64,000 nt of DNA from Somniosus microcephalus (taxonomy: Eukaryota), in contig CM126204.1 of NCBI GenBank assembly GCA_052327205.1, positions 158,410,001-158,474,000 of the forward strand, read 5' to 3'. Under the pieces are notes generated by a model. That model searched no databases. It saw only the letters and a list, made by a program, of their open reading frames with translations, and was not told the origin of the DNA. A program made the position numbers and the translations under genes. This document shows positions 4,692 to 64,000 of the stretch, piece by piece (the first letter of the stretch is position 1; every line of letters starts with the position of its first letter).

Positions 4692-4940
4692 GTACTAATC
4701 TGCAGTCTCCGAGCTCAGAGGGAGGGAGAGAAGTAAAAAGTAATCGAAGTGTGACGTCACCAGAAAGCAGTTAAGTGATTGGTTGGTGAGCATTTCTCTC
4801 TTTTTAAACTTTAACTCTGTGGTTTATAGTTTCTAAGGTCTCTCTGGTGTAGCGGGGACTGTTGGTAAGCCATTTAACTGTAGTGTAATTGGTGGGATTG
4901 ATTTGATTTAATTTAATTTGAATTAATTAAAGGGTAAGTC

Positions 4941-5891: not shown

Positions 5892-5932
5892 GATGGCAGG
5901 GGGTTGGGAATCTGAGCAGAGGGATAGAGGAA

Positions 5933-16846: not shown

Positions 16847-16998
16847 AATAGACTTCTGTTGGAAGTGAGTTTAGGGTAAAATACTGTTTGTGGAAAGCAC
16901 ATTTTATTAAAAGGAAGGTTTTCACTGCTACACAATCCTGCTCAGTGTACATATGTCACAATAAGCATTTCAGGATGATAATAAAGCATGTATGCTTG

Positions 16999-33953: not shown

Positions 33954-34513
33954 TGTAAACAATAATCCAATGATGTATTTATGGAAGGGGGGGCACTAAT
34001 GTGTCTGCTCAGGGCAAATGTAGGAAATGGTTCACGTGAAGAAAGGAAGTGTTTGAACAAAATTGACTCTTTCAAAACAAACACTTTTCCCCCCTCCTCA
34101 ATCAGCCCTTTGGATGTTTGAATGGATGTTGAAAACCGAGCCAAATGGTTTACTGCGGGATCTCCCCCCACCCTCAGAAGATCGTTATTTGAATGATAAT
34201 TCTGGAAATAAAAATCATAACGCTTTAAGACACGCTTAAGTGATACCAGTTGCAGGAGAATGGCTGTGCTTTTATGGAGCGATACAACTCAAGTCCACCT
34301 AAGGAACTGACTTCTCCAACCTTTTCCAGTTCTGACCATTCTCCTGCAGTATCACTTAAGCGTGTCTTAAAGCGTTATGATTTTTATTTCCAGAATGATC
34401 ATTCAAATAACGATCTTCTGAGGGTGGGGATCCCGCAGTAAACCATTTGGCTCGGTTTTCAACCGTGCCCCCCCCCCTTCCATAAATACAACATCATCGG
34501 ATTATTGTTTACA
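33954..34513. repeat. Long near-perfect inverted repeat
   Basis: 34336-34463 is the reverse complement of 34128-34263; 34465-34513 is the reverse complement of 33954-33996. Confidence 0.95.
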
Positions 34514-41300: not shown

Positions 41301-42500
41301 TGATTTTTTAACACTCTTAGTCTTTTTAGAATTATTATTTACTGTGGCCCTATTTGATTTACACCCTTGATTTCTCTGCCTTCCACTTTTGCTTTTCTCC
41401 TTCCTTTCTTTTGTTTCTATCCTTGCTTCCCTTTCCTTTGTCTCCCTGCACAGGTTCCCAAACCCCTGCCTCTTTGTTTAAACCCTCCCCAATAGCACTA
41501 GCAAACACTCCCCCTAGGACATCGGTTCCAGTCCCTCCCAGGTGCAAACCGTCCAGTTTGTACTGGTCCCACCTCCCCCAGAACCGGTTCCAATGTCCCA
41601 GGAATTTGAATCCCTCCCCCTTGCACCATTCCTCTAGCCATGTATTCATCTGAAATATCCTTCTATTTCTACTCTGACTAGCCTGTGGCATTGGTAGCAA
41701 TCCTGCGATTACTACCTTTGAGGTCCTATTTTTTAATTTACCTCCTAACTCCCTATATTCAGCTTTTAGGACCTCATCCCATTTTTTACCTATATCGTTG
41801 GTACCTATATGCACCACGACAACTGGCTGTTCACCCTCCCCCTCCAGAATGCCCTGCAGCTGCTCCAAGACATCCTTGACCCTTGCACCAGGGAGGCAAC
41901 ATACCATCCTGGAGTCTCATTTGTGGCCGCAGAAACGCCTATCTATTCCCCTTACAATAGAAGCCCCTATCACTATAGCTCTCCCACTTTTTTTCCTCCC
42001 GTCCTGTGCCGCAGGACCACCCATGGTGCCAGGAAGTTGGCTGTTGCTGCCTTCCCCTGATAAGCCATCCCCCTCAACAATATCCAAAGTGGTATATCTG
42101 TTTGAAAGGGGGATGGCCACAGGGGACACCTGCACTACCTGCCTGCACCTACTACTCTGCCTGGTGGTCACCCATTCCCTTCCTGCCTGTGCAGCCTTTA
42201 CCTGCGGTGTGACCAACTGATTAAACGTGATATCCACGACGTCCTCAGCATCGCGAATACTCCAGTATGTATCCATTCACAGCTCCAGCGCCGCAATGCA
42301 GTCTGTCAGTAGCTGCAGCTGGATACACTTCCCGCACACATGGTCATCAGGGACACAGGAAGTGTCCCTGATTTCCCACATAGTGCAGGAGGAGCATGCC
42401 ACGGGGCCGAGCTGTGCTGCCATGACTTACCCTTTAATTAATTCAAATTTAATTAAATCAATACCACTAATTACACTACAATTAAATGATATACTCAATA
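38398..42500 (-). mobile_element. Near full-length CR1, same family as 4422-8970, most of 5' UTR missing
   Basis: ORF1 remnants 42423-41475 (HIGTND, DGLHL), ORF2 41288-38484 in four pieces with intact FADD, tail AGAAACATAGAAACATAG at 38398. Confidence 0.95.
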
Positions 42501-44205: not shown

Positions 44206-47200
44206 TGTAGTGGCGCTTCTTAGTTTCCAAACAGGCAGGCCACTGGGCTGTGGGGCTTTTAACATCGAGTAGACGCGTGTCGAAATAAAACGTTCCCAAA
44301 CGTAGCTTTGTCTTTTAAACTGTTTACTATAACACTTAACAAACAGAATTACAAAGCAAACACGTATAAACGAACACGGTCAAAAACTGTACTGCTCCAA
44401 ACCTCACAGCTTCTGCCTCTTTCACCACGTGCAGTTTAAAACTGTAAGATGGCTGCACCCATGTGTGGCTTAGGGACTGTTCCATTGTGGCAAGAATGAA
44501 GGGGGTGTCGGACTATACTACTGGAGCAAGAAAATAGGGGGTTTCTTAATACAATAAGTCGTTCAGGTAAATTAACTGTATTATGCCATTTAGCCACTAT
44601 TTTAAAGTATTTTCTTAAGCTTTTATGGCTCTTACATTCCGGCCCCTAATTGACTAGGCACATGAAGCATATCAATTACTCAAACATTAAGAGTCATAAA
44701 CTAATGAGTTCAACATATTTACAATACAAGTGTCCACTTTTTTCTTTCGTTCAGGAGCCTTTCACGCTGCTTCTTGTAGCAGGCAGAGCTTTGTGATCGG
44801 TCTCTCCAGGGTACTGGTCTTGGTTTGCAAACAGACGCGACGAACAACGCCTCTGGAGTCTGGCATGGTCTTAATTATTTTTCCCATCAACCAAGAATTT
44901 CTAGGGGCTGAATCATCCACAATTAAGACAATGTCTCCGATGATGAAGTTCCTCTTTATTTTGGACCATTTTTGACGCTCCTGTAGCAGAGGTAAGTATT
45001 CTCTTGTCCATCTGGTCCAGAAGAGGTCTGACATATACTGAACTTGCCTCCACTTCCGACGGGCATACAGATCTTCCTTTTTGAAGACTCCCGGGGGCAT
45101 GGCTGGCTGTGTTTTCAACAACAACAGGTGGTTCGGAGTCAGGGCTTCGAGGTCATTGGGATCATCTGATGTCTTAGTTATCGGTCGGTCATTAATGATG
45201 GCTTCGACCTCGCACAGAACGGTTTGGAGTCCCTCGTCGTCCAGCGCTTGCTGCTTCAGTACAGAACTGAGTAGTTTTCTTACGGTGCGTATCTGTCTTT
45301 CCCAGACACCTCCGTGGTGGGATGCAGCCAGAGGATTGAAGATCCACTTAATTCCTGTTTGCATCATGGCTTCCTGTATTTTAAGCTGATTCCAACCTTC
45401 AATAGCTTCCCGTAGTTCTCTCTCCGCTCCGACGAAATTAGTGCCATTATCAGAACGCATAATGGACACCTGTCCTCTTCTACAGACAAAGCGCCGCAAG
45501 GCGTTAATACAGGAATCAGTGTCAAGCGTGTGTGCCACCTCAATATGAACTGCTCTGATGGTCAAACAAGTGAAAAGCACACCATATCTCTTGACAAGGC
45601 TCCGTCCTCGCTTTACCTCGAAAGGCCCAAAATAGTCCACCCCTACGTTTGTAAATGGGGGCTTGTCTGGTAACAAACGGTCTTCAGGCAGGTCTGCCAT
45701 TTTCTGCTCCCCAGCTCTAGCGTGTAACCGTCTGCAAACAATACATTCAGAGAGTATTTTTCTTATTACGGAATTAGCTCCTGGAATCCAGTATCTTTGT
45801 CTTAGCTTCGCAAGCACGTGATTCCTCCCACTGTGTCCAATACTCTGGTGTATATGCTGAAGAATGAGAGTAGCAACCCGGAGGTCCTTCGAAAGGATAG
45901 CAGGATGCTTGGCCTCCTCTGGCATAGCAGATTTGTTTAGTCTCCCTCCCACCCTCAGTACTCCATCTTGCAGTGTAGGGTCCAGCTTGTAGATATGACT
46001 ACCTTTCTTGATTGGAGTATTTTGCTGTAGAGCTTCGGTTTCTTCTGGGTATCTTTGTCTTTGACTGAAGCAAACTATCTCCTTCTCAGCCTTGGCCAAA
46101 TCCTCCACGGTCAATGAATTCTTGCTCAATGTGGTCTTGTGCTGATGCATATACTGCTGTAGAAGCATTCTCTGCTTATCAGGGTTACTTTCAGACTGAC
46201 TGATAGTGGCTCGGTACTCTTTTCTCTTACCGCTCAGGTGTAGCAGCAACTCTTTCAACCTTAGAAACCATGCAACTGCTTTCCTCAACTGGTGCCATCC
46301 TGAGAAATGGTTAACAAGCTTGTTCACTGTGTCAAAGTTCTCTTTCGTAGTTATGAAATTTACTGTGACTGATCTCTTGACTTCGACGTCGTCTTCAGTA
46401 ATCTGACTTGGCATATCTGGTCTTTCTGGCCATGATCTCTCTGTTTCCAGCAGATAACTTGGGCCTTGTATCCAAGTTTCACTCCTCATGAAGTTTTCAG
46501 CCTTCAGTCCCCGTGAGGCTTGATCTGCTGGGTTTAATGAGGTGTTTACATACCTCCATTGAGATGGTTGTGTAGCTTCTCTAATGGATGAGATTCTGTT
46601 TGCTATGAAGGTCTTGAAGCGTATTTTCTCATTCTCTATATACTTCAGCACCGTCGTGCTATCCGTCCAGAAGACAGATTCTTCTAATGGGAGCTGTAAC
46701 TCTTTACGCATCACCTGGTCAACTTTAACTGCAACAACCGCTGCCGTCAATTCCAGTCTCGGGATGGTGACCTGCTTCAGCGGAGCCACCCTGGATTTTC
46801 CCATGAGGAAGGCACAATGTTTCTGGCCCTGTTGATTTGTCAGCAAGAGGTAGGTAGCCGTGCCATAGCCGTCCTCACTGGCGTCCGAGAAATGATGTAG
46901 TTGAGCCGTCTTTGTAACTCCAAAACTCGCGGGCTTGATGCATCTACTGACGTTGAAGCTAGAAAGTTGTTGCAGATCTGTCAGCCATCTGTGCCATCTC
47001 TGAGCTTGACCTTCTGGGATATCTTCATCCCATCCTCTCTTGTCTCTACACAGCTCTCGTAGCATTGGCTTCACCGGCAGAATGAGTGGTGCCAGGAATC
47101 CGAGAGGGTCGTAGATGGAACTGACCACGGAGAGAATCCCTCGTCTTGTGGATGGTCTTTCGTTCACCATTATCCTGAAGTTGAACGTGTCTGACTCGAT

Positions 47201-50200
47201 GCACCATTGTACACCAAGAGCTCTCTCGATAGGAAGGACATCGTGGCTCAGGTCCAGATCTTTGACTTCAGTGGCTCTTTCCTTTTCTGGGATAGAAGCT
47301 GGAACTGCTCTGCTATTGCTTATCCACTTAGTCAGGTGGAATCCTCCATTCGAACACAGAGTTCTAAGGTCTCTTGACAGTGCGATGGCATCGTCTTCTG
47401 TTGACACGGACTTCAGACAGTCATCGACATAAAAGTTTCTGAAGATTGTCTCCACAGCCTCGGATGGTGCTTTGCCCTTGCCATCTTCTGCAGTTTTTCT
47501 GAGAGCGTAGCTTGCACAGCTGGGAGATGATGTGGCTCCAAACAGGTGTACGGCCATTCTACATTCCACCATCGCTTCACTAACGTCGCCATCTGGCCAC
47601 CAAAGGAAACGCAGAAGATCAGCATCTTCGTCAGGGACTCTGACTTGGTAGAACATTGATTCTATGTCTGCCATCATGGCAACGAGCTCTTGTCTAAACC
47701 TAGTCAAGACGCCAATGAGGGTATTAGTAAGATCAGGACCTTGAAGCAGCTGGTCATTCAATGAAGTTCCTCTGAATGAGGCGGCGCAGTCAAACACTAC
47801 ACGGATCTTTTTCTTCTTTGGGTGATACACCCCGTGATGAGGAATGTACCAGACCCTTCCATCGTCTCTGTTCAACTGTTCTTCGGGCACTTTTACAGCA
47901 TAGCCTTTCGCTATGATGTTTCTCATGAAGTCTTTGTAGTCTTCGTGAAAGTCGGGGTTCTTGTTCAGCTTTCTCTTTAGACTGATGGCGCGTTGCTCTG
48001 CTATGCAGCGATTGTTCGGCATCTTCGCGGTCTGTCTTCTCAGTGGCAAACCAATGTGATAGTGGCCATCAATGAACTGTGTAGACCTTGTCATCAAACC
48101 CATGAACTGATGGTCTTCTTGTGACATCTCTGTCTTTTCCTCACGGCTGCGTTCTGAGAAGTCTGCGTTGAACTGCTGTATCAACAGCTCTTCAATGCTT
48201 GCGATAGAGATGCGATTAACTGTGACGTTTTGTCGTTCCTCCTTGTTCGACTTGTGGCCATCATCTCTCCTTACCGGTCCATTGATTACCCATCCAAGGG
48301 CTGTCCTGACGGCGTAGGGTCCGTCATCCTTGCTGTTTATCACCTGCCATGGCTCCATAGTTTTGTAGGCATTGGTTCCAATTAATAGGCCAATTTCTGC
48401 TTCAATGTATGGGAGACGCACCTTTTCTAGGTAGGGCCATCTATCCACATCCTTCTGCAGGGCTAGGTTCCCTATTCTAACAGGAATCTTCCTCTGTGTG
48501 AAAACATTAGGCAGGTCTATGAAGTCCTTCTCTTCAAGTCCACACACTTCTAGGTCTGACAGGATATAGCTTTGCATTGACTTCTCATGACCCATGGTGC
48601 GTAATATGATTTCTGTTCTTCTGCCTCTAACGTTCAGCTGTCGCATGAGTGATTCTGTGCAGAACGTTGCTGAACTACCTGGATCCATGAAGGCGTAAGT
48701 CTCCACAACCTTCTCACTCCTCTTAGACTTGATCCTTACTGGTACGATGGCAAGAATACAGGCACTGTCACCGGCCCCAGTGAGTCCACAAGTCTCTGGT
48801 TCTAGCGACACCAGAGCACTTGAAACAACCTTCTCGTCGGTATTGTTTTCTTCACTCTTCTTAGAGACTTGTTCTTCTTTATGGATATGCAGCAGACTGG
48901 GATGTTTCCGAGTGCACTCTCTGCATGTTGTTCTTTGCTTACAGTTTCTACTCAGGTGCCCCTGAGAGAGACATCCAAAACATAGGCCGTTGTACTTCAG
49001 GAATTCGATTCTGTCCTTATGTGGCTGTGCTTTGATGTCGCTGCAGAAATCCAATGTATGATTCTTTTGGCAGAATAAGCATGGCTTCTGAAAGGCATTA
49101 GCAGGCGTCACTGTGCTGCTCTTTTTGGGAGATGAGTTCTGGGGCCTTTCTTCCTCGGCCTGAGTGACGATAGTTGCAAAGCTGCTTCCCCTGGAACCAC
49201 CTTTCCTGAGAGTCTTTGATTCAGCAGGCTTGGCTTTCACTCTTCCATCGGTGGTCGGGCTGACATCCTGGATGTTTCCAAACAATGGGTCCCTAGCAAT
49301 TTTAGCCTGTTTGTCGATGAAATTCACTAAGTCTGCAAACCTGGCTCTACTTTTCCGTCTCTCCATTATCTCAAAGGCTGTTCTTCTCCATTGTTCTCTC
49401 ATCCTGTAAGGAAGCTTAGAGATGACGATTCTCATAGTCGTAGGATTGTCCATCTCTTCCATGAATTCAACACCCTCCATGGTGTTGCGACATCCTATGA
49501 GGAAGAGAACATATGCGTTCAATGCCTCTCCATCTTCCGATCTGATCTGTGGCCACTTGGTAGCCTTTTCGATATATGCAGTGGCTATCTTCAGCTCATT
49601 ACCATAGTGCTGCTGCAGCAACTTCCTGGCTTCTATGTATCCCCGGTCCGGTCTCATGTGTTCACAGCTTCTGACCAGGTCTTGTGGTTTACCACTGGTG
49701 TACTGTCCCAGGTAGTACAACTTATCACTGCTGCTCTCTGTCTTGGAGTCAATGGCTTGTTCAAAGGATCTGATGAAGGGCTTATACTTGAGTGGGTCGC
49801 CTTGGAACACTGGTATGTCTCTTTGAGGGAGTCGAAACAGATTCTGTTGTTTTACAAGCATCTCTGTAATTTCGTTCTGACGTTGCATCACTCGGTATAG
49901 GCTTCTCCCTGTGTCTTCAGGCCTCTGGTGGTCATCAGCAGGGTCTAGTCTAGACCGTCTGACGTCTGGGGTAGCATCACGTGCTCCTGTTAGTGGAGAG
50001 GCCACTCTTCCATGCTGTAATGCCGAGGAATTGCTTTCGGGCTCTGTTGTAACTCTTGAAGGTGCCCTGGATCCAACTCTATGTGGCAACGTTGACTGGC
50101 AGTGGCTCCCGCCGTCCCGTGAGCCTTCATAATCTTCGTACGCACTCAACCTGGCATCTGAGACCTCAATAGCTGTTTTCATCTCCAGCCGTTCTTTCTT

Positions 50201-51543
50201 TGCCTGCACCTGGGCCCGCTGGGCCTGCACTTGGGCCTGTTGGGCCTGCACTTGGGCCTGCAGTTGGGCCTGTTGGGCCTGCAGTTGGGCCTGCAGTTGG
50301 GCCTCTTGGACCTGCAGTTGGGCCTCTTCCCGTTCAAGAGCTTGCTTCTCATCTAAAGATGCTGCGCGCGCCATCAACGCCGCCCGTTCAGCCTCCGCTC
50401 TCATGCGTCGCACCGAGCTTGTGGTAGAAGCGACTGACCTGCGTCCAGAAACAGAGCTACCTTCTTTTCGATTTTTGCTCGGTCTGGCGGAAGTCTCTGA
50501 AATGCTATCGTCTGGTCCGACTTCATCGTCAACCTTATCTTTCTCTGCTGTATCAGCATCTTGACGAATTTTTAACATCCACTGCTCCGTGGCCTTGATA
50601 TAGTCCTTAATGCTGGTTGATTTAAGATCAAACCAGTCGTGCTGATCAGTGTTTCCCTCTTCTTCAGACAGAAGTGCTAATATATCTTCATTGAGTATAT
50701 TAAATTCTTCATGCAGCTTGGAGAAATCGTAATACACCATGTCTTCAGCTTTCTTAATATTAGCATTATCTTCCATGAGACGATCAATTATCTTCATTTT
50801 TCCAGTTATCTGAACTAATTTAGCCTTCCTTGCACCTATGCTTCTATGTAACTTCTCTTCCCTTGCCTTTGGGGTGAGCTTTATTTCCCTCTTTTGGCCA
50901 GCAATCATTCTGGCTGGGGGAAGCTCCTGGCTCCTTAAGGCCTCGGCCATTTTACCCGCAGCTCTTATTTAGCTTCTCAACAGAATGAACAAAGCAAGTA
51001 ACAGTCACTGTACCTTCGCTTTCTTAAATTGTCGTCTGGCTCCGTGACCATTCATGTATACGTTCGCCGACGATTCCATCCCTTCCTTCTTAGGGAGCTA
51101 GTTTTTGACTAATGTAGTGGCGCTTCTTAGTTTCCAAACAGGCAGGCCACTGGGCTGTGGGGCTTTTAACATCGAGTAGACGCGTGTCGAAATAAAACGT
51201 TCCCAAACGTAGCTTTGTCTTTTAAACTGTTTACTATAACACTTAACAAACAGAATTACAAAGCAAACACGTATAAACGAACACGGTCAAAAACTGTACT
51301 GCTCCAAACCTCACAGCTTCTGCCTCTTTCACCACGTGCAGTTTAAAACTGTAAGATGGCTGCACCCATGTGTGGCTTAGGGACTGTTCCATTGTGGCAA
51401 GAATGAAGGGGGTGTCGGACTATACTACTGGAGCAAGAAAATAGGGGGTTTCTTAATACAATAAGTCGTTCAGGTAAATTAACTGTATTATGCCATTTAG
51501 CCACTATTTTAAAGTATTTTCTTAAGCTTTTATGGCTCTTACA
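44206..51543 (-). mobile_element. BEL/Pao LTR retrotransposon, full length, apparently intact
   Basis: 431-bp LTRs at 44206-44636 and 51113-51543 with no difference found by eye; TSD ATCTT at 44201-44205 and 51544-51548; PPT AGGGGCCGGAA adjacent to the 3' LTR. Confidence 0.97.
44762..50950 (-). CDS. BEL/Pao Gag-Pol polyprotein, 2062 aa, uninterrupted
   Basis: Three Gag Cys-His knuckles (CLFC...H...C, CFGC....H....C, CREC...H....H); protease FMDPGS; RT KIRVVFDC, FGATSSP, FYVDD; RNase H FSDAS, TIPRLEL, WTDST; integrase H-x4-H...C-x2-C, DYFGP, SDNGTNF, GGVWER. Confidence 0.97.
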   Translation of the reverse strand: MAEALRSQELPPARMIAGQKREIKLTPKAREEKLHRSIGARKAKLVQITGKMKIIDRLMEDNANIKKAEDMVYYDFSKLHEEFNILNEDILALLSEEEGNTDQHDWFDLKSTSIKDYIKATEQWMLKIRQDADTAEKDKVDDEVGPDDSISETSARPSKNRKEGSSVSGRRSVASTTSSVRRMRAEAERAALMARAASLDEKQALEREEAQLQVQEAQLQAQLQAQQAQLQAQVQAQQAQVQAQRAQVQAKKERLEMKTAIEVSDARLSAYEDYEGSRDGGSHCQSTLPHRVGSRAPSRVTTEPESNSSALQHGRVASPLTGARDATPDVRRSRLDPADDHQRPEDTGRSLYRVMQRQNEITEMLVKQQNLFRLPQRDIPVFQGDPLKYKPFIRSFEQAIDSKTESSSDKLYYLGQYTSGKPQDLVRSCEHMRPDRGYIEARKLLQQHYGNELKIATAYIEKATKWPQIRSEDGEALNAYVLFLIGCRNTMEGVEFMEEMDNPTTMRIVISKLPYRMREQWRRTAFEIMERRKSRARFADLVNFIDKQAKIARDPLFGNIQDVSPTTDGRVKAKPAESKTLRKGGSRGSSFATIVTQAEEERPQNSSPKKSSTVTPANAFQKPCLFCQKNHTLDFCSDIKAQPHKDRIEFLKYNGLCFGCLSQGHLSRNCKQRTTCRECTRKHPSLLHIHKEEQVSKKSEENNTDEKVVSSALVSLEPETCGLTGAGDSACILAIVPVRIKSKRSEKVVETYAFMDPGSSATFCTESLMRQLNVRGRRTEIILRTMGHEKSMQSYILSDLEVCGLEEKDFIDLPNVFTQRKIPVRIGNLALQKDVDRWPYLEKVRLPYIEAEIGLLIGTNAYKTMEPWQVINSKDDGPYAVRTALGWVINGPVRRDDGHKSNKEERQNVTVNRISIASIEELLIQQFNADFSERSREEKTEMSQEDHQFMGLMTRSTQFIDGHYHIGLPLRRQTAKMPNNRCIAEQRAISLKRKLNKNPDFHEDYKDFMRNIIAKGYAVKVPEEQLNRDDGRVWYIPHHGVYHPKKKKIRVVFDCAASFRGTSLNDQLLQGPDLTNTLIGVLTRFRQELVAMMADIESMFYQVRVPDEDADLLRFLWWPDGDVSEAMVECRMAVHLFGATSSPSCASYALRKTAEDGKGKAPSEAVETIFRNFYVDDCLKSVSTEDDAIALSRDLRTLCSNGGFHLTKWISNSRAVPASIPEKERATEVKDLDLSHDVLPIERALGVQWCIESDTFNFRIMVNERPSTRRGILSVVSSIYDPLGFLAPLILPVKPMLRELCRDKRGWDEDIPEGQAQRWHRWLTDLQQLSSFNVSRCIKPASFGVTKTAQLHHFSDASEDGYGTATYLLLTNQQGQKHCAFLMGKSRVAPLKQVTIPRLELTAAVVAVKVDQVMRKELQLPLEESVFWTDSTTVLKYIENEKIRFKTFIANRISSIREATQPSQWRYVNTSLNPADQASRGLKAENFMRSETWIQGPSYLLETERSWPERPDMPSQITEDDVEVKRSVTVNFITTKENFDTVNKLVNHFSGWHQLRKAVAWFLRLKELLLHLSGKRKEYRATISQSESNPDKQRMLLQQYMHQHKTTLSKNSLTVEDLAKAEKEIVCFSQRQRYPEETEALQQNTPIKKGSHIYKLDPTLQDGVLRVGGRLNKSAMPEEAKHPAILSKDLRVATLILQHIHQSIGHSGRNHVLAKLRQRYWIPGANSVIRKILSECIVCRRLHARAGEQKMADLPEDRLLPDKPPFTNVGVDYFGPFEVKRGRSLVKRYGVLFTCLTIRAVHIEVAHTLDTDSCINALRRFVCRRGQVSIMRSDNGTNFVGAERELREAIEGWNQLKIQEAMMQTGIKWIFNPLAASHHGGVWERQIRTVRKLLSSVLKQQALDDEGLQTVLCEVEAIINDRPITKTSDDPNDLEALTPNHLLLLKTQPAMPPGVFKKEDLYARRKWRQVQYMSDLFWTRWTREYLPLLQERQKWSKIKRNFIIGDIVLIVDDSAPRNSWLMGKIIKTMPDSRGVVRRVCLQTKTSTLERPITKLCLLQEAA

Positions 51544-53066
51544 ATCTTATATGTTTCAATAAGATCGCCTCTCATTCTTCTGAACTCCAATGAGTAGAGT
51601 CCCAATCTACTCAACCTCTCCTCATATGTCCATCCCCTCATCCCCGGGATTAACCGAGTGAACCTTCTTTGTACTGACTCGAGTGCAAGTATGTCTTTTC
51701 TTAAGTATGGACACCAAAACTGTATGCAGTATTCCAGGTGCGGTCTCACCAATACCTTGTACAACTGAAGCAATACCTCCCTATTTTTATATTCTATCCC
51801 CCTAGCAATGAAAGCCAACATTCCATTGGCCTTCTTAATCACTTGCTGCACCTGCATACTAACCTTTTGAGTTTCGTGCACCAGGACCCCCAGATCCCTT
51901 TGTACTTCAGTACTTTCCAGTTTCTTGCCATTAAGATAATAACTTGCTCTATGATTTTTTCTGCCAAAGTGCATAACCTCACACTTTCCAGTATTGTATT
52001 CCATCTGCCAAACCTCTGCCCACTTACTTAGCCTGTCTATGTCCCCTTGCAGGTTTTTTATGTCCTCCTCACTCACTACTTTCCCTCCCATCTTAGTATC
52101 ATCTGCAAACTTTGATATGTTACACTCGGTCCCCTCCTCCAAATCATTAATATAGATTGTAAAGAGTTGGGGACCCAGCACTGACCCCTATGGAACACCA
52201 CTAGTTACTGATTGCCATTCTGAGAATGAACCATTTATCCCAACTCTCTGCCTTCTGTTAGATAGCCAATCCTCTATCCATGCCAGAATATTACCCCCAA
52301 TCCCGTGATTTTTTATCTTAAGCAATAATCTTTTGTGTGGCACCTTGTCAAATGCCTTTTGGAAGTCTAAATACACTACGTCCACTGGTTCCCCTTTATC
52401 CACCCTATATGTTACTTCCTCAAAGAACTCCAGCAAATTTGTCAAACATGACTTCCCCTTCATAAAACCATGCTGACTTTGTCCTATTAAATTATGATTA
52501 TCCAAATGTCCTGTTACTGTCTCCTTAATAATGGACTCCAATATTTTACCTACCACAGATGTTAGGCTAACCGGTCTATAGTTTCCAGCCTTCTGTCTAC
52601 TGCCCTTTTTAAATAAGGGCGTTACATTAGCAGTTTTCCAGTCTGCCGGGACCTTTGTTGAGTCCAGGGAGTTTTGAAAAATTATTACCAATGCATCCAC
52701 AATCCCTACTGCCACTTCCCTCAAGACCCTAGGATGTAAGCCATCAGGTCCAGGTGATTTATCCGCCTTGAGTCCCATTATTTTACCGAGTACCACTTCC
52801 TTAGTGATTTTGATCGTGTTTAGCTCCTCCCCCCCATAGCCCTCTGTTTGTCCAGTGTTGGGATATTCTTAGTGTCTTCTACTGTAAAGACTGATACAAA
52901 ATATTCATTCAGTGTTTTTGCCATCTCCATAATGAATAGCAAGGAGTAATGGCAAGCCTGTAATGTAATGCGTTATAAATCATAAGAGTGAAGCTTGAGT
53001 GAATCTGTATCTGAAAGTTGTGTGAGTGAAGAAGCTGAAGACAAGTTTTTTGTTGAAAGCACGTTA

Positions 53067-53769
53067 GGGGAAAAATTGGGTTGGTTTGCGCCTCTTGTTA
53101 GCCCCGGGGGGCGCTAATGGGGCGCAAATCCCCTAGCGCCCGGGCGCGGCACTGCTAACGCCTTCTGCAAAATTCAGCGGGAGGTTAGTGGCGGTGGTAG
53201 CCGATAGCACCCCACGGCACATGCCCCACTCATGCCCCGACCGCAAACTTCACTTGCGCCCCTGACATATTGCCGGATGGTATGTCCAACAGGATCAGGG
53301 GGCGTTTATGCAGCGGCGGCGGAGCAACTTAAAGTGTCGGGTGGCCATTTTTATTTTGGGCCGACTGCCAGCACTTGCCCCCTTTCACTTTTTTATGCAG
53401 GGTGCTCACCGCGATCACTCAGCCCGGCACTCCTCTTGAGTGCCGGCTGTTTTCACGGCACCCTGCTCCCCGGTGTTCTAGCAGAGCCCCGGTGCGCGCA
53501 GCGCTAGGCCCCCCCCTTTAATCAGGGGAGGAGGCCTGCAATGACGTGGCGCTATGTGCCACTGCACGTGGCGCTGTTGCACGTAGTGCCACGAAATTCA
53601 GTAGTAGTGCCCCAAGCAAGAGGTGGAGTGCTTTCCAGTAGCGCCCCACCTCCTGCTTGGGGTGCTACTACTGAATTTACGGTGGAGGGGTGCAAACTTT
53701 TTCGGTGCGCTAAAATTAGCACCATGGCGACGTTAGTGCCCCAGAAGGAACGCAACCCAATTTTCCCCC
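53067..53769. mobile_element. GC-rich Harbinger-type MITE
   Basis: TIRs GGGGAAAAATTGGGTT (53067) / AACCCAATTTTCCCCC (ending 53769), one mismatch; flanks TTA / TTT. Confidence 0.75.
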
Positions 53770-55063
53770 TTTACTTTTTCCATTTGTGGGGTTATGGTTC
53801 TGTCGATGGGTTGAAATCATTCTCTCCTGTTTAAGTTGGTCATAAAATAAAAATGAAAACAAACTGAGATAAATGAGTCTATAGTTTTTGCGCTACTGCA
53901 TATATAGTTCCTATTGGATTTGCATGTTAAAGACAGGTGACAGCTGTACACCAATATTCACAAAAAGATAATTGTGTGTCAACCGTGGCTCAATTGGTCC
54001 TCTACCAATCTGCCCCCGCCACACAGTACTGCCCCCCAATTATCATAATCCATGACAAGGCCTTGGACAACGTGGACCACTTTCCATACCTTGGGAGCCT
54101 ACTGTCAACAAGGGCAGATGTCGATGATGAAGTCCAACACCGCCTTCAGTGTGCCAGTGCAGTCTTTGGTCGCCTGAAGAAGAGAGTGTTTGAAGACCAG
54201 GACCTCAAACCCAGCACCAAGCTCATGGTCTACAGAGCAGCAGTGATACCCACCCTGCTGTATGCCTCAGAGACATGGACCATGTACAGCAGGCACCTCA
54301 AAGCACTGGAGAGGTACCACCAACGCTGCCTCTGCAAGATCCTGCAAATCCAATGGCAAGATAGGCGCACCAATGTCAGTATTCTCGCTCAGGCCAACAT
54401 CCCCAGTATTGAAGCTTTGACCACACTTGATCAGCTCCAATGGACAGTCCATATCGTCCGCATGCCCGATATGAGACTCCCAAAACAAGCGCTCTACTCG
54501 GAGCTCCGACACGGCAAGAGAGCCCCAGGTGGGTAGAGGAAACGCTTCAAGGACACCCTCAAAGCCTCCTTGAAAAAGTGCAACATCCGCACCAACACCT
54601 GGGAATCCCTGGCCCAAGACCACACAAAGTGGAGGAGAAGCATCCGGGAAGGCGCCGAACACCTCGAATCTCTTCACCGGGACCAAGCGGAAGCCAAGTG
54701 CAAGCAGCACAAGGGGCGCACGTCAACCCAAGCACCCCACCCCCCCCTTCAAACACCATCTGCCCCGCCTGTGACAGAGACTGTAGGTCTTGCAATGGAC
54801 TCATCTGTCACCTGAGAACTCATTTTTAGTGTGGAAGCAAGTCATCCTCGGTGTAACATTTGCACATTGAATTCTCATTGGCCCGCAGGCACCTGTAAGG
54901 AATACCTATTATATTCACATGTGATCACATGCTGAGTTGTCATTGGCCTGCAGGCATCTGTAAGGACTGCTATTGTTTTGAAGACCCAGACTAGGGGTCC
55001 TAACGCCATCTTTTTCCCCACTGAGCTGCTATGAGTAAGATCACAGAGTAAGATCAGACCTAA

Positions 55064-58000
55064 TCTATATCTCTATATATATAAAGCGGCTCTTCTGTCT
55101 GCCTGGATGTCTGTCCCGATGTCTGTCTGTCTGGATGTCTGTGTTCTATACGTTTAAAAGTTATAGAGCGTACCAAAGCGCGCGTCACCTCAAAAGAAAG
55201 CTTGCGATTCCGGACCGGTCATAGGCGTATTTACGTTTCGGCCGGACAAAAATCGCGCCCGCGGTATCCAAAAAACGTTCAGCGTTCTGCTCATTAGCAT
55301 CTCATTAGCGACCGTGTGACGTCGAGGTCGACCAATCGTACGGCGGGTTCCTGGCGCGTGCCATCCTACAGTTGAGTGTCGAGTGACTTGACGATTGACC
55401 AATCCTACGCTTCGGCGACCTGACCGGCCGACCAATCGGTGCGTGTGTGGGCGGGCCTTATCCTTCTGAACCGAGGTGAGTGGCCGCCATCTTGCTTCCA
55501 TTCCTTTTCCTGCTTTCTGCGTCTTTCTTTTCAAATATACATTTCCAGCAAAATAAAATTGAATTTATTAAATTGTTTTAAAAAAAACTTCATTCATTTG
55601 TAAATATTTTTTCTAACCTGAACATTCTTTTTCCTACCTTTTCCCGTTTTTTTGTTAGGCCTGAAAGCCTGGGCTTTTCTTGCCCAGCCAGGCCCGAGCT
55701 AGGGCTTCTGCTCAGCTCCAAACCCCCCCCCGCCCCCCGCCGTCACGTTACCCGGGGCAACGGCGTCAGCCACGAGGGTCAGGGAGCGTGCGCAGCAGGA
55801 GCAGGTGAGACGCGGCGTCGGATCTCGGCCTTGGTGAGCGGGAAGGGTTACCCTGGCAACCAGAGCCGCAATCGGCGGAATTCAAGCCAGCTCGGCCGGG
55901 GGGGGGGGGGGCGGGGCTCGGAGAGCGGGGCGAGGCGGCTGGTGCTTGGAGAGCGGGGCTCTCGGCCGGGGGGGGCGGGGCTCGGAGAGCGCGGCTCTCG
56001 GCCGGGGGGGGCGGGGCTCCGGGAGCGCGGCTCTCGGCCGGGGGGGGCGGGGCTCGGATAGCGCGGCTCTCGGCACTGCGGGGCGGGGCGGCGCGGCAGG
56101 GTTACCCCGGCAACTGGGCGTGGTCACAGAACCACTGAAACCCCACAGTGCAGATAGAGGCCATTTCGGCCCATCAGCCTCAAGCCCTCCCTTCCTCCCT
56201 CCCCCCCCCCGCCCTCACTCCCTCCCCCCCTTCCCCTTCCTCCCCCCCTCCCTTCCCCCCCCCCCCCGGGAGGGAGGGCGCCAACCTCGGGAGGGAGGGA
56301 GCCCCCCCAGTCGCTCTCTCTCCCCCCAGTCGCTCTCTCTCCCCCCCAGTCGCTCTCTCTCCCCCCAGTCGCTCTCTCTTCCCCCCAGTCTCTCTCTCTC
56401 CCCCAGTCTCTCTCCCCCCAGTTTCTCTCTCTCCCCCCAGTCTCTCTCCCCCCCAGTCTCTCTCTCTCTCCCTCCCAGTCTCTCTCTCTCCCCCCCGTCT
56501 CTCTCTCTCCCCCCAGTCTCTCTCTCTCCCCCCCAGTCTCTCTCTCTCCCCCCCAGTCTCTCTCTCTCTCCCCCCCAGTCTCTCTCTCTCCCCCCGTCTC
56601 TCTCTCTCCCCCCAGTCTCTCTCTCTCTCCTCCAGTCTCTCTGTCCGCAGTCCCTCTCTCCCCCCAGTCTCTCTCTCTCTCCCCTCCAGTCTTTCTCTCC
56701 CCCAGTCTCTCTCTCCCCAGTCTCTCTCTCCCCCAGTCTCTCTCTCTCCCCTCCAGTCTCTCTCTCCCCCAGTCTCTCCCCCAGTCTTTCTCTCCCCCCA
56801 GTCTCTCTCTCTCTCTCCCCAACTCTCTCCCTCTCCCCCCAGTCTCTCTCTCTCTCTCTCCCCCACTCTCTCCCTCTCCCTCCACTCTCTCCCTCTCCCC
56901 CCAAGTCTCTCTCTCTCCCCATCTCTCTCTCCCCTCAGTCTCTCTCTCTCTCTCCCCCCCACCCCCCCGGTCTCCCCCCGTCGCTCGCTCGCTCTCTCTC
57001 TCTATCTCCCCAGTCTCTCTCTCTCTCCCCAGTCTCTCTCTCCCTTCGCCCATCTCTGTCTCTCTCCCCCAGTCTCTCTCTCTCTCTCCCCGTCTCTCTC
57101 CCCCAGTCTCTCTCTCTCTCTCCCCCTCAGTCTCTCTCTCTCTCTCTCTCCCCATTCTCTCTCTCTCTTTCCCCAGTCTCTCTCTCTCTCTCCCCGTCTC
57201 TCTCCCCCAGTCTCTCTCTCTCTCCCCCTCAGTCTCTCTCTCTCTCTCTCTCCCCATTCTCTCTCTCTCTTTCCCCAGTCTCTCTCCTCTCTCTCCCCCG
57301 TCTCTCTACTCTCTCTCTTTCTCTCCCCCATCTCTCTCCCTCTCCCCCCAAGTCTCTCTCTCTCCCCATCTCTCTCTCCCCTCAGTCTCTCTCTCTCTCT
57401 CCCCCCCACCCCCCGGTCTCCCCCGTCGCTCTCATCGCTCTCTCTCTCTATCTCCCCAGTCTCTCTCTCTCTCTCCCCAGTCTCTCTCTCCTTTCGCCCA
57501 TCTCTNNNNNNNNNNNNNNNNNNNNNNNNNNNNNNNNNNNNNNNNNNNNNNNNNNNNNNNNNNNNNNNNNNNNNNNNNNNNNNNNNNNNNNNNNNNNNNN
57601 NNNNNNNNNNNNNNNNNNNNNNNNNNNNNNNNNNNNNNNNNNNNNNNNNNNNNNCCAGTCTCTCTCTCTCTCTCCCCGTCTCTCTCCCCCGGTCTCTCTC
57701 TCTCTCCCCCTCAGTCTCTCTCTCTCTCTCTCTCCCCATTCTCTCTCTCTCTTTCCCCAGTCTCTCTCCTCTCTCTCCCCCCGTCTCTCTACTCTCTCTC
57801 TTTCTCTCCCCCATCTCTCTCTCTCTCCCCCAGTCTCCCTCTCTCCCCCTCAGTCGCTCTCTCTCTCCCCCCTCAGTCTCTCTCTCTCTATCTCCCCAGT
57901 CTCTCCCTCTCTCTCCACATCTCTCTCTCTCTCACCCCTCAGTCGCTCTCTCTCTCCCCCTCAGTCTCTCTCTCTCTCCCCTCAGTCTCTCTCTCTCTCT

Positions 58001-60017
58001 CTCCCCCCCACCCCCCGGTCTCTCTCTCTCCCCCGTCGCTCTCTCTCTCTATCTCCCCAGTCTCTCTCTCTCCCCAGTCTCTCTCTCCCTTCGCCCATCT
58101 GTGTCTCTCTCCCCCCAGTCTCTCTCTCTCTCCCCGTCCCTCTCCCCAGTCTCTCTCTCTCTCTCCCCATCTCTCCCCCAGTCTCTCTCTCTCTCTCCCC
58201 CTCAGTCTCTCTCTCTCGCTCTCTCCCCATTCTCTCTCTTTCCCCAGTCTCTCTCTCTCTCTCCACATCTCTCTCTCTCCCCCTCAGTCTCTCTCTCTCT
58301 CCCCTCAGTCTCTCTCTCTCTCCCCCCCACCCCCTGGTCTCTCTTCTCCCCCCGTCTCACTCTCTCTCCCCCCAGTCTCTCTCTCTCACACACCCCAATC
58401 CTCACTTCACACTCCCAACTCTCTCTCCACACTCCCAATCCTCACTCACACACACCCCAACACCACTCACACACTCCCACACACACTCACAACCCACTCC
58501 CCACACACACACCCAACCCTCTCACTCACACTCACCACACCCCCACACACACACTCCACACCCACCTCACACACACCCCACCACTCACACTCCCACTCCC
58601 CACTCTCACACTCCCAATCTCTCTCTCTCACACCCACACTCTCCCACACTCCAACTCTCTCTCACACTCCCAATCACTCTCTCTCACACACCCAATCTCT
58701 CTCTCTCACACTCCCAATCTCTCTCTCTCTCACACTCCCAATCTCTCTCTCTCTCTCACACTCCCAATCTCTCTCTCTCACACTCCCAATCTCTCTCTCA
58801 CACTCCCAATCTCTCTCTCTCTCACACTCCCAATCTCTCTCTCTCTCACACTCCCAATCTCTCTCTCTCTCACACTCCCAATCTCTCTCTCTCACACACT
58901 CCCAATCTCTCTCTCTCACACACTCCCAATCTCTCTCTCTCACACACTCCCAATCTCTCTCTCTCTCTCACTCCCAATCTCTCTCTCTCACACTCCCAAT
59001 CTCTCTCTCACACACTCCCAATCTCTCTCTCACACTCCCAATCTCTCTCTCTCTCACGCTCCCAATCTCTCTCTCTCACACTCCCAATCTCTCTCTCTCT
59101 CACACTCCCAGTCTCTCTCTCACACTCCCAATCTCTCTCTCTCTCTCACACTCCCAATCTCTCTCTCTCACACACTCCNNNNNNNNNNNNNNNNNNNNNN
59201 NNNNNNNNNNNNNNNNNNNNNNNNNNNNNNNNNNNNNNNNNNNNNNNNNNNNNNNNNNNNNNNNNNNNNNNNNNNNNNNNNNNNNNNNNNNNNNNNNNNN
59301 NNNNNNNNNNNNNNNNNNNNNNNNNNNNNNNNNNNNNNNNNNNNNNNNNNNNNNNNNNNNNNNNNNNNNNNNNNNNNNNNNNNNNNNNNNNNNNNNNNNN
59401 NNNNNNNNNNNNNNNNNNNNNNNNNNNNCTCACACTCCCAGTCTCTCTCTCTCACACTCCCAATCTCTATCTCTCACACTCCCAATCTCTCTCTCTCTCA
59501 CTTCCAATCTCTCTCTCTCTCACACTCCCAATCTCTCTCTCTCTCACTCCCAATCTCTCTCTCTCTCACACTCCCAATCTCTCTCTCACACTCCCAATNN
59601 NNNNNNNNNNNNNNNNNNNNNNNNNNNNNNNNNNNNNNNNNNNNNNNNNNNNNNNNNNNNNNNNNNNNNNNNNNNNNNNNNNNNNNNNNNNNNNNNNNNN
59701 NNNNNNNNNNNNNNNNNNNNNNNNNNNNNNNNNNNNNNNNNNNNNNNNNNNNNNNNNNNNNNNNNNNNNNNNNNNNNNNNNNNNNNNNNNNNNNNNNNNN
59801 NNNNNNNNNNNNNNNNNNNNNNNNNNNNNNNNNNNNNNNNNNNNNNNNNNNNNNNNNNNNNNNNNNNNNNNNNNNNNNNNNNNNNNNNNNNNNNNNNNNN
59901 NNNNNNNNNNNNTCTCTTCCCCCCAGTCGCTCTCTCTCTCTCTTCCAACAACAACATGCCCTCAAAAAGCCTCGGCACCGCCGGGCTCCCCCAGCACCGC
60001 CGGGCTCCCCCAGCTAG
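55064..60017 (+). mobile_element. Non-autonomous Helitron-type element, copy 1
   Basis: A|TCTATA start, (CTGT)n tract near the 5' end, 3' hairpin CTCGGC-ACC-GCCGGG then CTAG; no TSD; host LTR rejoins as AA|TG. Confidence 0.8.
56290..59945. repeat. Pyrimidine-rich minisatellites (CCCCCAGT(CT)n, then CACACTCCCAAT(CT)n) with three N gaps
   Basis: Directly visible; gaps at 57506-57654, 59179-59428, 59599-59912. Confidence 0.95.
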
Positions 60018-62472
60018 TATATAAATAAAACGGTCTGTCTCTCTGTCTGTCTTTCTGTCTCTCTGTCCGGCTATACAATCAATAGTTATAGAGCGTACCT
60101 ACACGTGTGTTACATCAAAAGAAAGCTTACGATTCCAGAACGGTCGTAAGCGTATTTACGTTTCGGTGAGACAAAAATTGTGCCCGCGGTATCCAAAAAA
60201 CATTCAAAATTCCGCTCATTATCTGCTCAATAGCATTGAGTGACGTCGAGGTCGACCAATCGTACGGTCAAGCGACCTGACGGTCGACCAATCGCTGCGT
60301 GGCGGGGGCGGGTTCCTGGCACGTGCGGGCGGGCTCTCCTAGAGTCGAGTGACGGGACGATTGACCAATCCTACGCTTCGGTGACCTGACGGTCGACCAA
60401 TTGGTGCGTGTGTGGGCGGGCCTTATCGTTCTGAACCGAGGTGAGTCGCCGCCATCTTGATTCCAAACTTTTCATTTCTTTTTCCCGCTTTCTGCGTCTT
60501 TAAAAAAAAAGTTGCTTTTAAAACACATAGGCCTAGAAATTCAGTTTGGGGCGCCCAGCTCGCCTGGGCGCCGGAATTACTGCTGCGCGCGGAGCCACTT
60601 GCGCCAGCGGGAAATTCACTTTCTGCGCCCCAAGTGGAAGCCGGCCGCTAAACAAGGGTTTCGGCGCCCCGCTTGGGGCGCTGAAACTGAATATCGGCGT
60701 GTAAAGTGCCGCAGCGCCACCCGCTGCGGCACGGCAGCCTGCGGTACTGCAGGCCTTCCTCCCACTCTTAAGGGGGAGGTGCCTGCAACAGCGCGATCCC
60801 CGCTCGCGAGTGCTGGCAAATGAGCCCGGCACCAAGGAGAAGTGCCGGGCTCTCTGGAAACAGCCGGCAATGCCGCGGGGGGCGGGTGTAGGAGGCCAGG
60901 GACGGAGGTGCGGGCAGGCGGCCGCCGAAAAAGCGGTCGGCCGCACCTCCACCTTAACTCGCCCCACTACCGGCACAGGTAGGCCCCGTGTACCGATCGC
61001 TGTTTGCGGCCGGCGTGGGGGAGGCGGCAGCAACTAAATATGGCCAGCGGGGCGATAGCGGGGCGCTGCGCACACCGATGACGTCATCGGTGGCGGCGCA
61101 GCGCTAATGGCTAACGCCGCCATTAGCGCCCCGCTAAATATCGCGGTAGGTTTGCACAGTGGCGCAAATGCCCTCTTTGGGCGCAAACTGGTGGCGCAGG
61201 CCACTGAATTTCTAGGCCATATTGTTTTTAAAAAAAAGTTAATTACTTTCTAAATCTTTTATCTAATCTCATTAATTTTCCTACCTTTCCCCGTTTTTGC
61301 AGGTAGGCCTCGAAGCCTGGGCGTCTGTTGCCAGCCATGCTGGACCCTAGGCAATTGTTTTGTGGCAAGCTCCTCCCACCCCCCACCACCCCCCCCCCCC
61401 GCTGGGCCCGATTCCGAACCAGCGGCCAGCCATCTTGGTAAAGGCTGGTGGCTGGGCTCACTGCAAGGCTCCTCGCGCTTCATTCGGGGGGGGGGGGCGG
61501 GGCTCGGGAGGGGAGGGGGAGCGGAGAGGGTTATCCCGGCAACCGGGCTCGCCAGCCACAATCGGCTGTCTCAAGCCGCTGAGGCCCAGTCCCGGAGATC
61601 GGGAGGCGGAGAGGGGAGGAGGGTTACCAAGGCAACCGGGCCCGGCCAGCCGCAATCGGCCGTCTCAAGCCGCCTCAGGCCTGGCCTCGGGAGGGTGGGG
61701 CTCGGGCTGACCGGGGCACTGCGCTCGGCATGTCAGTGCGTGGGGCGGCACGGAGCTCAGCGGAGCCATCGCCGGCAGAGGGGAGTGGATCTGCTGGCTC
61801 CCCCCTCCCTTTCTCCCCCCTCCTTCCCCNNNNNNNNNNNNNNNNNNNNNNNNNNNNNNNNNNNNNNNNNNNNNNNNNNNNNNNNNNNNNNNNNNNNNNN
61901 NNNNNNNNNNNNNNNNNNNNNNNNNNNNNNNNNNNNNNNNNNNNNNNNNNNNNNNNNNNNNNNNNNNNNNNNNNNNNNNNNNNNNNNNNNNNNNNNNNNN
62001 NNNNNNNNNNNNNNNNNNNNNNNNNNNNNNNNNNNNNNNNNNNNNNNNNNNNNNNNNNNNNNNNNNNNNNNNNNNNNNNNNNNNNNNNNNNNNNNNNNNN
62101 NNNTCCCCTTTCCACCCCCCTCCCCTTTCCCCCCTCTCNNNNNNNNNNNNNNNNNNNNNNNNNNNNNNNNNNNNNNNNNNNNNNNNNNNNNNNNNNNNNN
62201 NNNNNNNNNNNNNNNNNNNNNNNNNNNNNNNNNNNNNNNNNNNNNNNNNNNNNNNNNNNNNNNNNNNNNNNNNNNNNNNNNNNNNNNNNNNNNNNNNCCC
62301 CCCATTTCTCCCCCCCTCCCCCCCCACCTTCCCCCCAGTCGCTCTCTCTCTTCCCCCCAGTCGCTCTCTCTCTTCCCCCCAGTCGCTCTCTCTCTTCCCC
62401 CCAGTCGCTCTCTCTCTTCCAACAACAACATGCCCTCAAAAATCCCTCGGCACCGCCGGGCACTTCAGCTAG
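60018..62472 (+). mobile_element. Non-autonomous Helitron-type element, copy 2, head-to-tail with copy 1
   Basis: 60018-60500 homologous to ~55075-55535; same subterminal CAACAACAACATGCCCTCAAAAA, hairpin and CTAG|T at 62469-62473. Confidence 0.8.
60530..61218. mobile_element. GC-rich Harbinger-type MITE inside Helitron copy 2
   Basis: Perfect 16-bp TIR GGCCTAGAAATTCAGT / ACTGAATTTCTAGGCC; 3-bp TSD ATA; absent from copy 1. Confidence 0.9.
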
Positions 62473-62903
62473 TGCTTAATAAAAGAGTTAAACTGTAATA
62501 CTCCGTTGTCCTGCAAGTTATTACTTTTGTACAAAGTGTGCAAAACAAGACACTCGGTTCCGTGTGACTGCCTAAGAAGAAGAAGTTGGTAGCACTCGTG
62601 CCTCTGAGTCAGAAGGTTGTGGGTAAACAGCCCACTCCAGAGAATTGAGCATAAAAATCTAGGTTGACACGCCAGACAGTCCACTGTACTGTACTGTCGG
62701 AGGTGCCGTCTTTCGAATGAGATGTTAAACTGATGCCCCCGTCTGCTCTCTCAGGTGGACATAAAAAATCCCATGGCACTATTTTGAAGAGCAGGGGAGT
62801 ATTTATCCTTCAATCATCATCACTAAAGCAGTTTATCTGGTCATTAACACATTGCTGTTTGTGAGAGCTTGCTATGTGTTTCCTACATTACAACTGTGAC
62901 TAC

Positions 62904-64000
62904 AGCCGCGAAATTGGAGCCTTAGTGCTGGCCGTTAAGAAAAAATTGCAGCTGCCTCGCTTTTGCCTGCTTCCAGCAGGTCCCACAGCAGCTACCATTT
63001 TGGGAAGATCAGCAGTGCTTATATTTAGATGATGAGGCAGATCGTGACGTCAATGGGTGTGCAACATTGATTTGATGCACAATCTACCATTTTGGACATC
63101 GATGCTCCATTTAATGCCCTCTCCTAATCACAACCAACTGACCATGCGTTCAGCAGCAGGAGGAACCCCCAGCAGTGATATTTAAAGGGATCATCAACAG
63201 CTTACAGCTGACTTGCTTTTTCATTTCTACTGGCTCTGTGTAGGTATGTGCAACTGTTTGGAGCTTTCTATAGTTGTCTAAAGTTGCTGAGGTGACAGGG
63301 AGTGTTGCTGCAAGTACTGAATGCCTTGCTTCTCATTTAAAGGGTTCTGCTCACACCACTTGTCTCATTTAAAGGGTTCTGCTCACACCACTTGCTCCCA
63401 GTCATGGGGGCCCTACTTGCAATCCCCCTCATGCTCGAGTATGACAGGGAGATGGAGTGGAGGCAGCGAAGAAGAGGACAAGATGCTCACAGAGGGAGGA
63501 GGTGTAGGGCCAGGACAGCTCTCAATAGGAGGCCTTAGAGTCTTCAGGGAGCACTTCTCCTTCCCGCAACCAAGCCAGGAGCAGTGAGTTCGGAGGCTCC
63601 GCTTCACCAAGGAGGTAGTCGCAGTACTCAGAGTAGGGTGACGACGGCTCTCAAGGTCGCCGTGGCCCTCATTTTTTTCACCACCAGATCTTTCCTGTCT
63701 GGAGCAGACGACATAGCTAACATCTCCCAGTTCGCTGTCCATCGTTGCATCCAGGAGGTCACAGAGGCTCTCTACTCCAGGAGAAGGGGCTTCGTTGCCT
63801 TCTCTCTGAACAGAGAAAAGCAGGAGGAGCACGCATGTGGCTTTGCCAGGATATCAGGCTTCCTCATGGTGCAGAGCGCCATCGACTGCACACACGTGGC
63901 TTTGCGGGCACCGTATACCAATCCCGAAATGTTCCATAACCGCAAAGGCTACCACTCACTTAATGTGCAGTTGTTGTGCGACCACGCCCAGAGCATCATG
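62904..64000 (+). mobile_element. Harbinger transposon with degenerate transposase, runs off the window
   Basis: My translation of ~63650-64000: KVAVALIFFTT...GFARISGFLMVQSAIDCTHVALRAP...NRKGYHSLNVQLLCDH; TIR-like GCCGCGAAATT interrupts the SINE at ~62905. Confidence 0.85.

Follow-up and report, generated by a model that had tools for sequence, protein, structure and literature searches.

A stretch of 64,000 nucleotides of Somniosus microcephalus (GCA_052327205.1, contig CM126204.1, positions 158,410,001 to 158,474,000), which we call the window, contains two non-autonomous Helitrons, A and B, one inserted into the other, and the 5' parts of both carry a promoter-like cassette. The cassette has CCAAT boxes, a GC box, a splice donor and a YY1 motif, followed by matches to the X-box, the site bound by RFX factors. 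We think it probable, at roughly 0.55, that this cassette is the parent autonomous Helitron's own NF-Y/RFX promoter with an intron in the 5'-untranslated region (5'-UTR), kept in deletion derivatives that are mostly silent. An earlier note on this DNA had proposed a mobile promoter-like module, which agrees with our results, as the motifs exceed chance and the family is abundant in DNA. Its suggestion of host capture loses ground for the part with the CCAAT boxes, the YY1 motif and the donor, which each of the two copies has at its 5' end, acceptor included, and which has a parallel in an autonomous frog Helitron.

Two nested Helitrons

The elements are part of a five-level nest (Table 1). The tail of a long interspersed nuclear element (LINE), which we take to be RTE-like, holds a solo long terminal repeat (LTR), which holds Helitron B, which in turn holds Helitron A, and a miniature inverted-repeat transposable element (MITE) lies in the predicted intron of B. 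Helitron B entered the solo LTR between an A and a T immediately ahead of AATAAA, and Helitron A entered between an A and a T, 6 nt into the 5' end of B. When 55064-55069 is joined to 60018, the start of Helitron B reads TC...TATATAAATAAAA. Both sites were reconstructed from the nest itself, and neither element has a target duplication. A TC followed by a TA-rich stretch, which is a feature of Helitron1 (PMC12001565), is found at 55070 and at 55064/60018, and the CTAG 3' ends are at 60014-60017 (A) and 62469-62472 (B). With this TC start, CTAG end, insertion between A and T and lack of duplication, the elements are indeed Helitrons, as the earlier note had said, and they are canonical members of Helitron1, abundant and with three of the terminal features. 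The hairpin, looked for about 11 nt ahead of the 3' end, has an imperfect stem in A and in B, with folding z-scores of -1.16 and -1.48 that are within the range of shuffled sequences.

Regarding coding capacity, neither RepHel nor any other Pfam domain was matched in the nine frames scanned inside A and B, where N gaps take up about 1.1 kb, and therefore we classify both elements as non-autonomous. Pfam gave no match in 11 frames at 53.9-63.9 kb, the LINE frame included, and Rfam gave none down to E=1 across 54800-62600. A head-to-tail tandem of A and B was considered and rejected: the junction is without TC and the missing 6 nt stand ahead of A. The likeness of the two 5' parts (74% by blastn) also speaks against such a tandem. 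A further MITE-like element with inverted ends, at 53060-53770, is weakly related to the one in the intron of B (70% over 115 nt).

The family is very abundant and dispersed in the DNA of two organisms (runs X1 and X2; depths are relative to the LTR flank and are not copy numbers). The contigs matching the locus numbered 15021 in X1 and 8847 in X2, including those of the unrelated repeat at 56124-56175. Since DNA depth rises about 60- to 100-fold at 55070 in the two runs, this position is the 5' end of the family. The depth is highest within the family at the 5' module, at 65-1155x. Exact family patterns had no match in metagenome contigs and none in viral contigs. CpG decay accounts for four of the six T-for-C changes listed for the Helitron A copy, so this copy has been methylated; between A and B there is no excess of CpG decay (13/44 CpG vs 8/31 GpC).

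Table 1. Features of the nest in order of position
Feature	Position	Strand	Remark
Left target-site duplication CTCGG (5 bp) of solo LTR, in LINE 3' tail	54847..54851	+	twin at 62553-62557
Solo LTR-like element, left part, TG start	54852..55063	+	low DNA depth
First 6 nt (TCTATA) of Helitron B	55064..55069	+	presumably split off by insertion of A
Helitron A, non-autonomous, TC ... CTAG, between A and T	55070..60017	+	termini and DNA depth step
CRE-like TGACGTC	55317..55323 (A), 60241 (B)	+	A and B identical
Three GACCAAT boxes of A (55330, 55397, 55430)	55330..55438	+	last pair spaced 33 bp
GC box of A	55449..55455	+	
Predicted 183-nt intron of A	55476..55658	+	donor GAG/GTGAGT, branch-like CTAAC 55613, pyrimidine tract, AG 55657-55658
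X-box A1, 3-nt spacer	55747..55761	.	flanks unrelated to other four; in high-depth family segment
Second donor-like site of A	55803..55809	+	70% of X1 depth has C for the +1 G
Third donor-like site TTG/GTGAGC, between A1 and A2	55831..55839	+	possible captured exon end, from sequence
X-box A2, repeated unit	55847..55860	.	T at 55854 is CpG decay of this copy alone; 95% of X1 depth has C
36-bp GC-rich minisatellite, 4.1 copies	55944..56089	+	
X-box A3, repeated unit	56101..56114	.	downstream flank swapped for abundant repeat 56124-56175
Fragment of very abundant interspersed repeat	56124..56175	-	DNA depth, loose ends
Simple repeats rich in CT and in CA, including three N gaps, in Helitron A	56185..59950	+	
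Helitron A 3' end	59968..60017	+	imperfect hairpin, 19-bp duplication, CTAG
Helitron B body, non-autonomous	60018..62472	+	B total is 55064-55069 plus 60018-62472
B promoter-like array	60238..60420	+	two CCAAT 32 bp apart plus GC box, twice; units 77% alike
Predicted intron of B	60441..61306	+	donor 60441, AG at 61301-61302 or 61305-61306
MITE within predicted intron of B	60530..61218	.	inverted ends, 3-bp ATA duplication
94-bp tandem duplication	61511..61681	+	holds X-boxes B1 (61530-61543) and B2 (61623-61636)
Helitron B 3' end	62445..62472	+	imperfect hairpin, CTAG, then T
Solo LTR, right part with AATAAA	62473..62557	+	CA end at 62552, then right CTCGG duplication

Promoter-like module and X-boxes

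The alignment of A and B runs from their 5' ends to about 55693/61340. In each element the module begins at a distance of about 250 nt from the TC end, with donor and acceptor inside it, and both copies have a CRE-like word (after the cAMP response element), CCAAT boxes, a GC box, a donor, a YY1 motif, a branch-like site (CTAAC in A, CTAAT in B), a pyrimidine tract and an AG. The GACCAAT boxes, of which three to four per copy had been claimed, number three in A and four in B, against means of 0.08 and 0.05 in dinucleotide shuffles (n=1000, as for all shuffles unless another number is given), none of which reached either count; plain CCAAT in A is not enriched (414/1000 shuffles). The array is itself built by duplication of a unit in which two boxes, spaced by 32-33 bp, are accompanied by a GC box; the pair spacings are 32, 32 and 33 bp across A and B, and a spacing of about 33 bp is conserved in cyclin B2 promoters (PMC3287175). 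By eye, we saw no CHR-type element (CHR being the homology region of cell cycle genes).

The GC box and the donor GAG/GTGAGT followed by YY1 are present in both copies as reported, with donor matches at 55474 and 60439 and YY1 matches at 55485 and 60450. The DNA is also as CpG-rich as had been said, the observed/expected ratio of the 5' modules being 1.34 and 1.43 vs 0.55 for window positions 1-55000. The splice donors had been described as donors alone, but each of them opens a complete predicted intron with a conserved acceptor, and that of B is about 170 nt long once the MITE is removed. The YY1 motif lies 8 nt into the predicted intron (55484-55494 in A, 60449-60459 in B). When A is compared with B, 77/79 motif positions are identical vs 341/406 elsewhere (Fisher p 6e-4), or 67/68 vs 92/102 within the core (p 0.05); these figures are biased upward because the motifs were picked after both copies had been seen. 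The donor-like site at 55803 was rejected as a family feature on account of its +1 base (Table 1). On the minus strand, at 55458-55494 and 60423-60459, the YY1 motif reads AAGATGGCGG and opens an identical 10-codon frame in both copies, and an antisense start may be possible there.

The whole front end could also be a host promoter of the housekeeping or cell-cycle kind that was captured together with its first exon and first intron, or transcription could start at YY1 as an initiator, with the donor upstream and unused. We give this very little credence. Host promoters of this kind typically have an NF-Y/GC/YY1 arrangement, and YY1 sites reportedly occur in 5'-UTR introns (PMC3680475). With a start at YY1 the last CCAAT would stand at about -55 and the GC box at about -40; the joints listed from RNA, described below, also contain no spliced read. 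However, the branch point, pyrimidine tract and AG are retained in both copies, there is no other strong donor between YY1 and the acceptor, and the module stands directly after the Helitron 5' end, at the highest family depth.

We defined the strict X-box as GTNRCC-N0-3-RGYAAC. All five X-box strings of the earlier note were found at 55747 (A1), 55847 (A2), 56101 (A3), 61530 (B1) and 61623 (B2), and the GGCAAC half-site is unchanged in every one of them. Four of the five fit the strict consensus and the one at 61530 fits a looser form alone, so that the loose fit is 5/5. In 55060-56180 there are three strict matches, compared with a shuffle mean of 0.02, and none of the shuffles reaches three; about 1% per 570 nt is expected by chance, and outside both elements the whole window has one strict X-box (63283). 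The distances from the predicted donor of A are +271, +371 and +625.

These five boxes do not form a single cassette, but are three in A plus two in B, four of them copies of one unit. Because the flanks of A1 are unrelated to the others and the other four are related in context, the sequence points to two origins and not five, one being a duplicated unit (A2, A3, B1, B2) and the other A1. The downstream flanks of A2, B1 and B2 are related (0/1000 shuffles for each pair), and A3 has the same immediate context, which an X2 contig joint (56118->55864) continues into their flank; in 95% of X1 depth A2 is identical to A3. The repeat fragment that follows A3 is presumably a shark SINE/CR1-type (short interspersed nuclear element) tail, its strand being likewise our assumption. 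The earlier statement that the flanks vary holds only in part, as those of the repeated unit are 81-90% alike. The changes within this unit leave GGCAAC untouched and affect the spacer or one tolerated position. Of the 40 family differences listed out of 270, one falls within the spacer of an X-box; the 5' motifs have none. The A1 segment has a DNA depth of 246x and 66x, and the acceptor region 84-100x and 25-26x; as it is at least as deep, the A1 segment is no rare passenger. The depth at A2 and A3 is lower (28-64x and 8x).

The X-boxes might be incidental, that is, one or two palindromic words, possibly relics of an old 3' hairpin, which were locally duplicated in unstable GC-rich DNA and have no RFX role. 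Four of the five are one unit without excess conservation, A2 has CpG decay, RNA is lowest at A1, and unit B1 is weakly like the 3' hairpin of the element (19 and 26/2000 shuffles; ten comparisons, not significant after correction). We nevertheless consider it improbable, for the strict match occurs in two unrelated contexts, A1 and the repeated unit, each with the chance given above, the changes spare GGCAAC, and an A.C mismatch retained in 5/5 agrees better with the RFX consensus than with a hairpin. None of the five folds as a full dyad.

Origin and activity of the cassette

Regarding the origin of the X-boxes, the main competitor of a native promoter is that the segment at about 55700-55900 was captured from a ciliary or sperm gene of the host, whose promoter and first exon it would represent, and was then amplified and partly duplicated, for which HelibatN3/NUBPL is a precedent, while the 5' CCAAT/YY1/intron module would be native. 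The A/B alignment ends just before this segment, and A1, a GC-rich stretch of about 70 nt, the donor-like site at 55831-55839 and A2 together resemble a first exon. Moreover, Helitrons of bats and frogs commonly capture the 5' ends of genes, and the X-boxes of host genes cluster within 500 bp of start sites (PMC5838959). The frames scanned inside both elements gave no Pfam match, however, and the A2-type unit is common to A and B at matching donor distances (+371; +397 without the MITE), so it predates the A/B split. An autonomous frog Helitron also has an X-box in its 5' region. We therefore hold the capture of this segment to be unlikely.

The frog element is Heli1Xen1 of Xenopus laevis. At the 5' end of its intact Chr3L locus, chromatin immunoprecipitation (ChIP) gave an enriched signal for myb, foxn4, beta-catenin, ep300, rfx2 and foxj1 (PMC12001565). 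In the first ~500 nt of its sequence (Fig. S3 there, read by eye) CCAAT stands at about nt 283, 324 and 398. There are GC boxes as well, and GTTGCTACGGCAAC at about nt 481, ahead of the transposase, is a strict X-box on the other strand. The words 'motif' and 'binding site' are absent from the main text of that paper, where the X-box is seemingly unremarked. Heli1Xen1 resembles A and B in the TC and TA-rich start, the CTAG end with a hairpin (imperfect in A and B), and a 5' region with CCAAT, GC box and X-box; it differs in encoding RepHel, in its other terminal sequences and in having one X-box.

Coming back to the cassette as the promoter of the parent Helitron, we infer its native origin, its binding by the factors, its splicing and its germline activity as follows. 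In the parent, NF-Y on the phased CCAAT pairs would act with Sp/KLF, CREB/ATF and the YY1 inside the intron to drive a short exon without coding function, which would be spliced towards RepHel. RFX dimers on the X-boxes, 270-630 bp past the donor, would raise the output in RFX-rich cells, e.g. spermatogenic or ciliated cells, and through spermatogenic expression new insertions would be inherited. One X-box unit would have been multiplied by local duplication, and the present copies would be passengers, partly methylated and mostly silent. The Helitron left end is essential for copying (PMC4778049), and for this reason the 5' module would be kept in derivatives without RepHel. Circumstantial support for a germline link comes, by analogy, from the Helitron-linked texim genes of platyfish, which are expressed in late spermatids (PMC4021074).

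Transcription was examined in two RNA runs of one organism, from unspecified tissue, with 24% and 31% of the reads covered. The matching reads were 7275 and 13962, about half of them on an unrelated repeat at the right end. The RNA comes from both strands, there is neither a start-site step nor an intron dip, and the two joints with RNA support are also present in DNA, so the pattern fits read-through of copies within host transcripts; activity in testis is compatible with it.

Several results weigh against a native RFX-driven promoter. In the RNA, the spliced reads that the earlier note proposed to look for were not seen, as the joint 55475->55659 is not among the 15 of 47 joints listed. Besides the origin of the RNA from both strands, its depth relative to DNA stays level across promoter, exon and intron and has its minimum at X-box A1. 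Nor are the X-boxes better conserved than the neighbouring bases, a result that the earlier note had named among those speaking against its proposal: the 14-mers of the repeated unit are 11-12/14 alike, compared with 81-90% for the flanks over aligned columns (three pairs), and for four of the boxes this amounts to the internal duplication of one unit. The half-sites alone are 34/36 identical, too few positions for a conservation test. Helitron B is without an A1-type site, and the last CCAAT stands about 45 nt ahead of the donor, leaving little room for a start site upstream of the latter. The frog parallel is one case, found via the word 'RFX' and compared without alignment, with different ends, and ChIP at open promoters can be unspecific.

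Finally, 120 metagenome RepHel loci, many of them decayed, served as a control. No strict X-box was found in 69 kb upstream of the 35 loci with at least 2.5 kb upstream, and the 11 loci whose long frame begins within the contig had none in the 1 kb ahead of that frame. Thus X-boxes are not a general Helitron trait, and in Helitron 5' ends they may be a trait of vertebrates. Nor did these loci contain an autonomous partner with the same ends, as none of the 120 had a blastn match. The RepHel motif had no match in viral contigs. Five of the metagenome contigs (L047, L049, L051, L052, L061) have unbroken RepHel-motif frames of 1420-1878 aa and are possibly intact Helitrons.

Among known systems, the HelibatN3 element that carries the NUBPL promoter in vesper bats is similarly a high-copy non-autonomous Helitron with promoter, first exon and donor (PMC4778049, PMC4224331), but its donor gene is known and its splice donor lacks an internal acceptor and traps exons, whereas the predicted first intron of A and B is complete. 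The Caenorhabditis heat-shock element (HSE) Helitrons have repeated sites for one factor that also drives the autonomous element (PMC6927752); HSF-1 binding and gene regulation were shown there, while A and B have two to three predicted RFX sites per copy. Human LTR12/ERV9 is a transposon promoter with a CCAAT array and testis activity, although it is a retroviral LTR with a TATA box and with demonstrated NF-Y binding (PMC5085097). In the open-access literature, with subscription journals and Repbase outside the coverage, we found no description of X-boxes in Helitron promoters.

Surroundings and significance

Repeats are plentiful in the vertebrate DNA of the window, with pieces of LINE, Gypsy-like, BEL/Pao and DDE_Tnp_4 (Harbinger-type) elements, and they look like those of a cartilaginous fish. 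At 44206-51412 there is a BEL/Pao retrotransposon with an unbroken frame of 2068 aa on the minus strand (44762-50968; Peptidase_A17, RVT and integrase), and its direct repeats are 100% identical over at least 300 nt, which indicates a very young insertion. Another LTR retrotransposon, at 12279-16556, has an RVT frame (12510-15107) and direct repeats that are 92% identical. Direct repeats of more than 500 nt, 98% alike and about 1.86 kb apart, mark a small LTR-like element at 16994-19387, without identified coding frame. Two long LINE copies in opposite orientation (4903-8858 and 38504-42461) are 85-93% alike in pieces. A DDE_Tnp_4 fragment was matched by Pfam at 24110-24502, and 63413-64000 is similar to it by eye, with no Pfam match in the one frame scanned. 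At 34166-34429 lies an 81-bp inverted repeat, 99% complementary, with arms 102 nt apart.

How vertebrate Helitrons gain access to the germline is not understood, and their own promoters are little described. Tentatively, vertebrate Helitron1 lineages could use an RFX and NF-Y promoter to be switched on during spermatogenesis or ciliogenesis, and this family could have scattered thousands of promoter cassettes with X-boxes over its host genomes, some of them co-opted as promoters and enhancers in testis or cilia. It would then be the RFX equivalent of the Caenorhabditis heat-shock Helitrons. If this control is not shared, the locus is an ordinary repeat nest with one duplicated motif. If it is shared, it would give a directly testable link and a means for X-boxes to reach new genes, and the frog parallel makes the link with RFX cheap to test.

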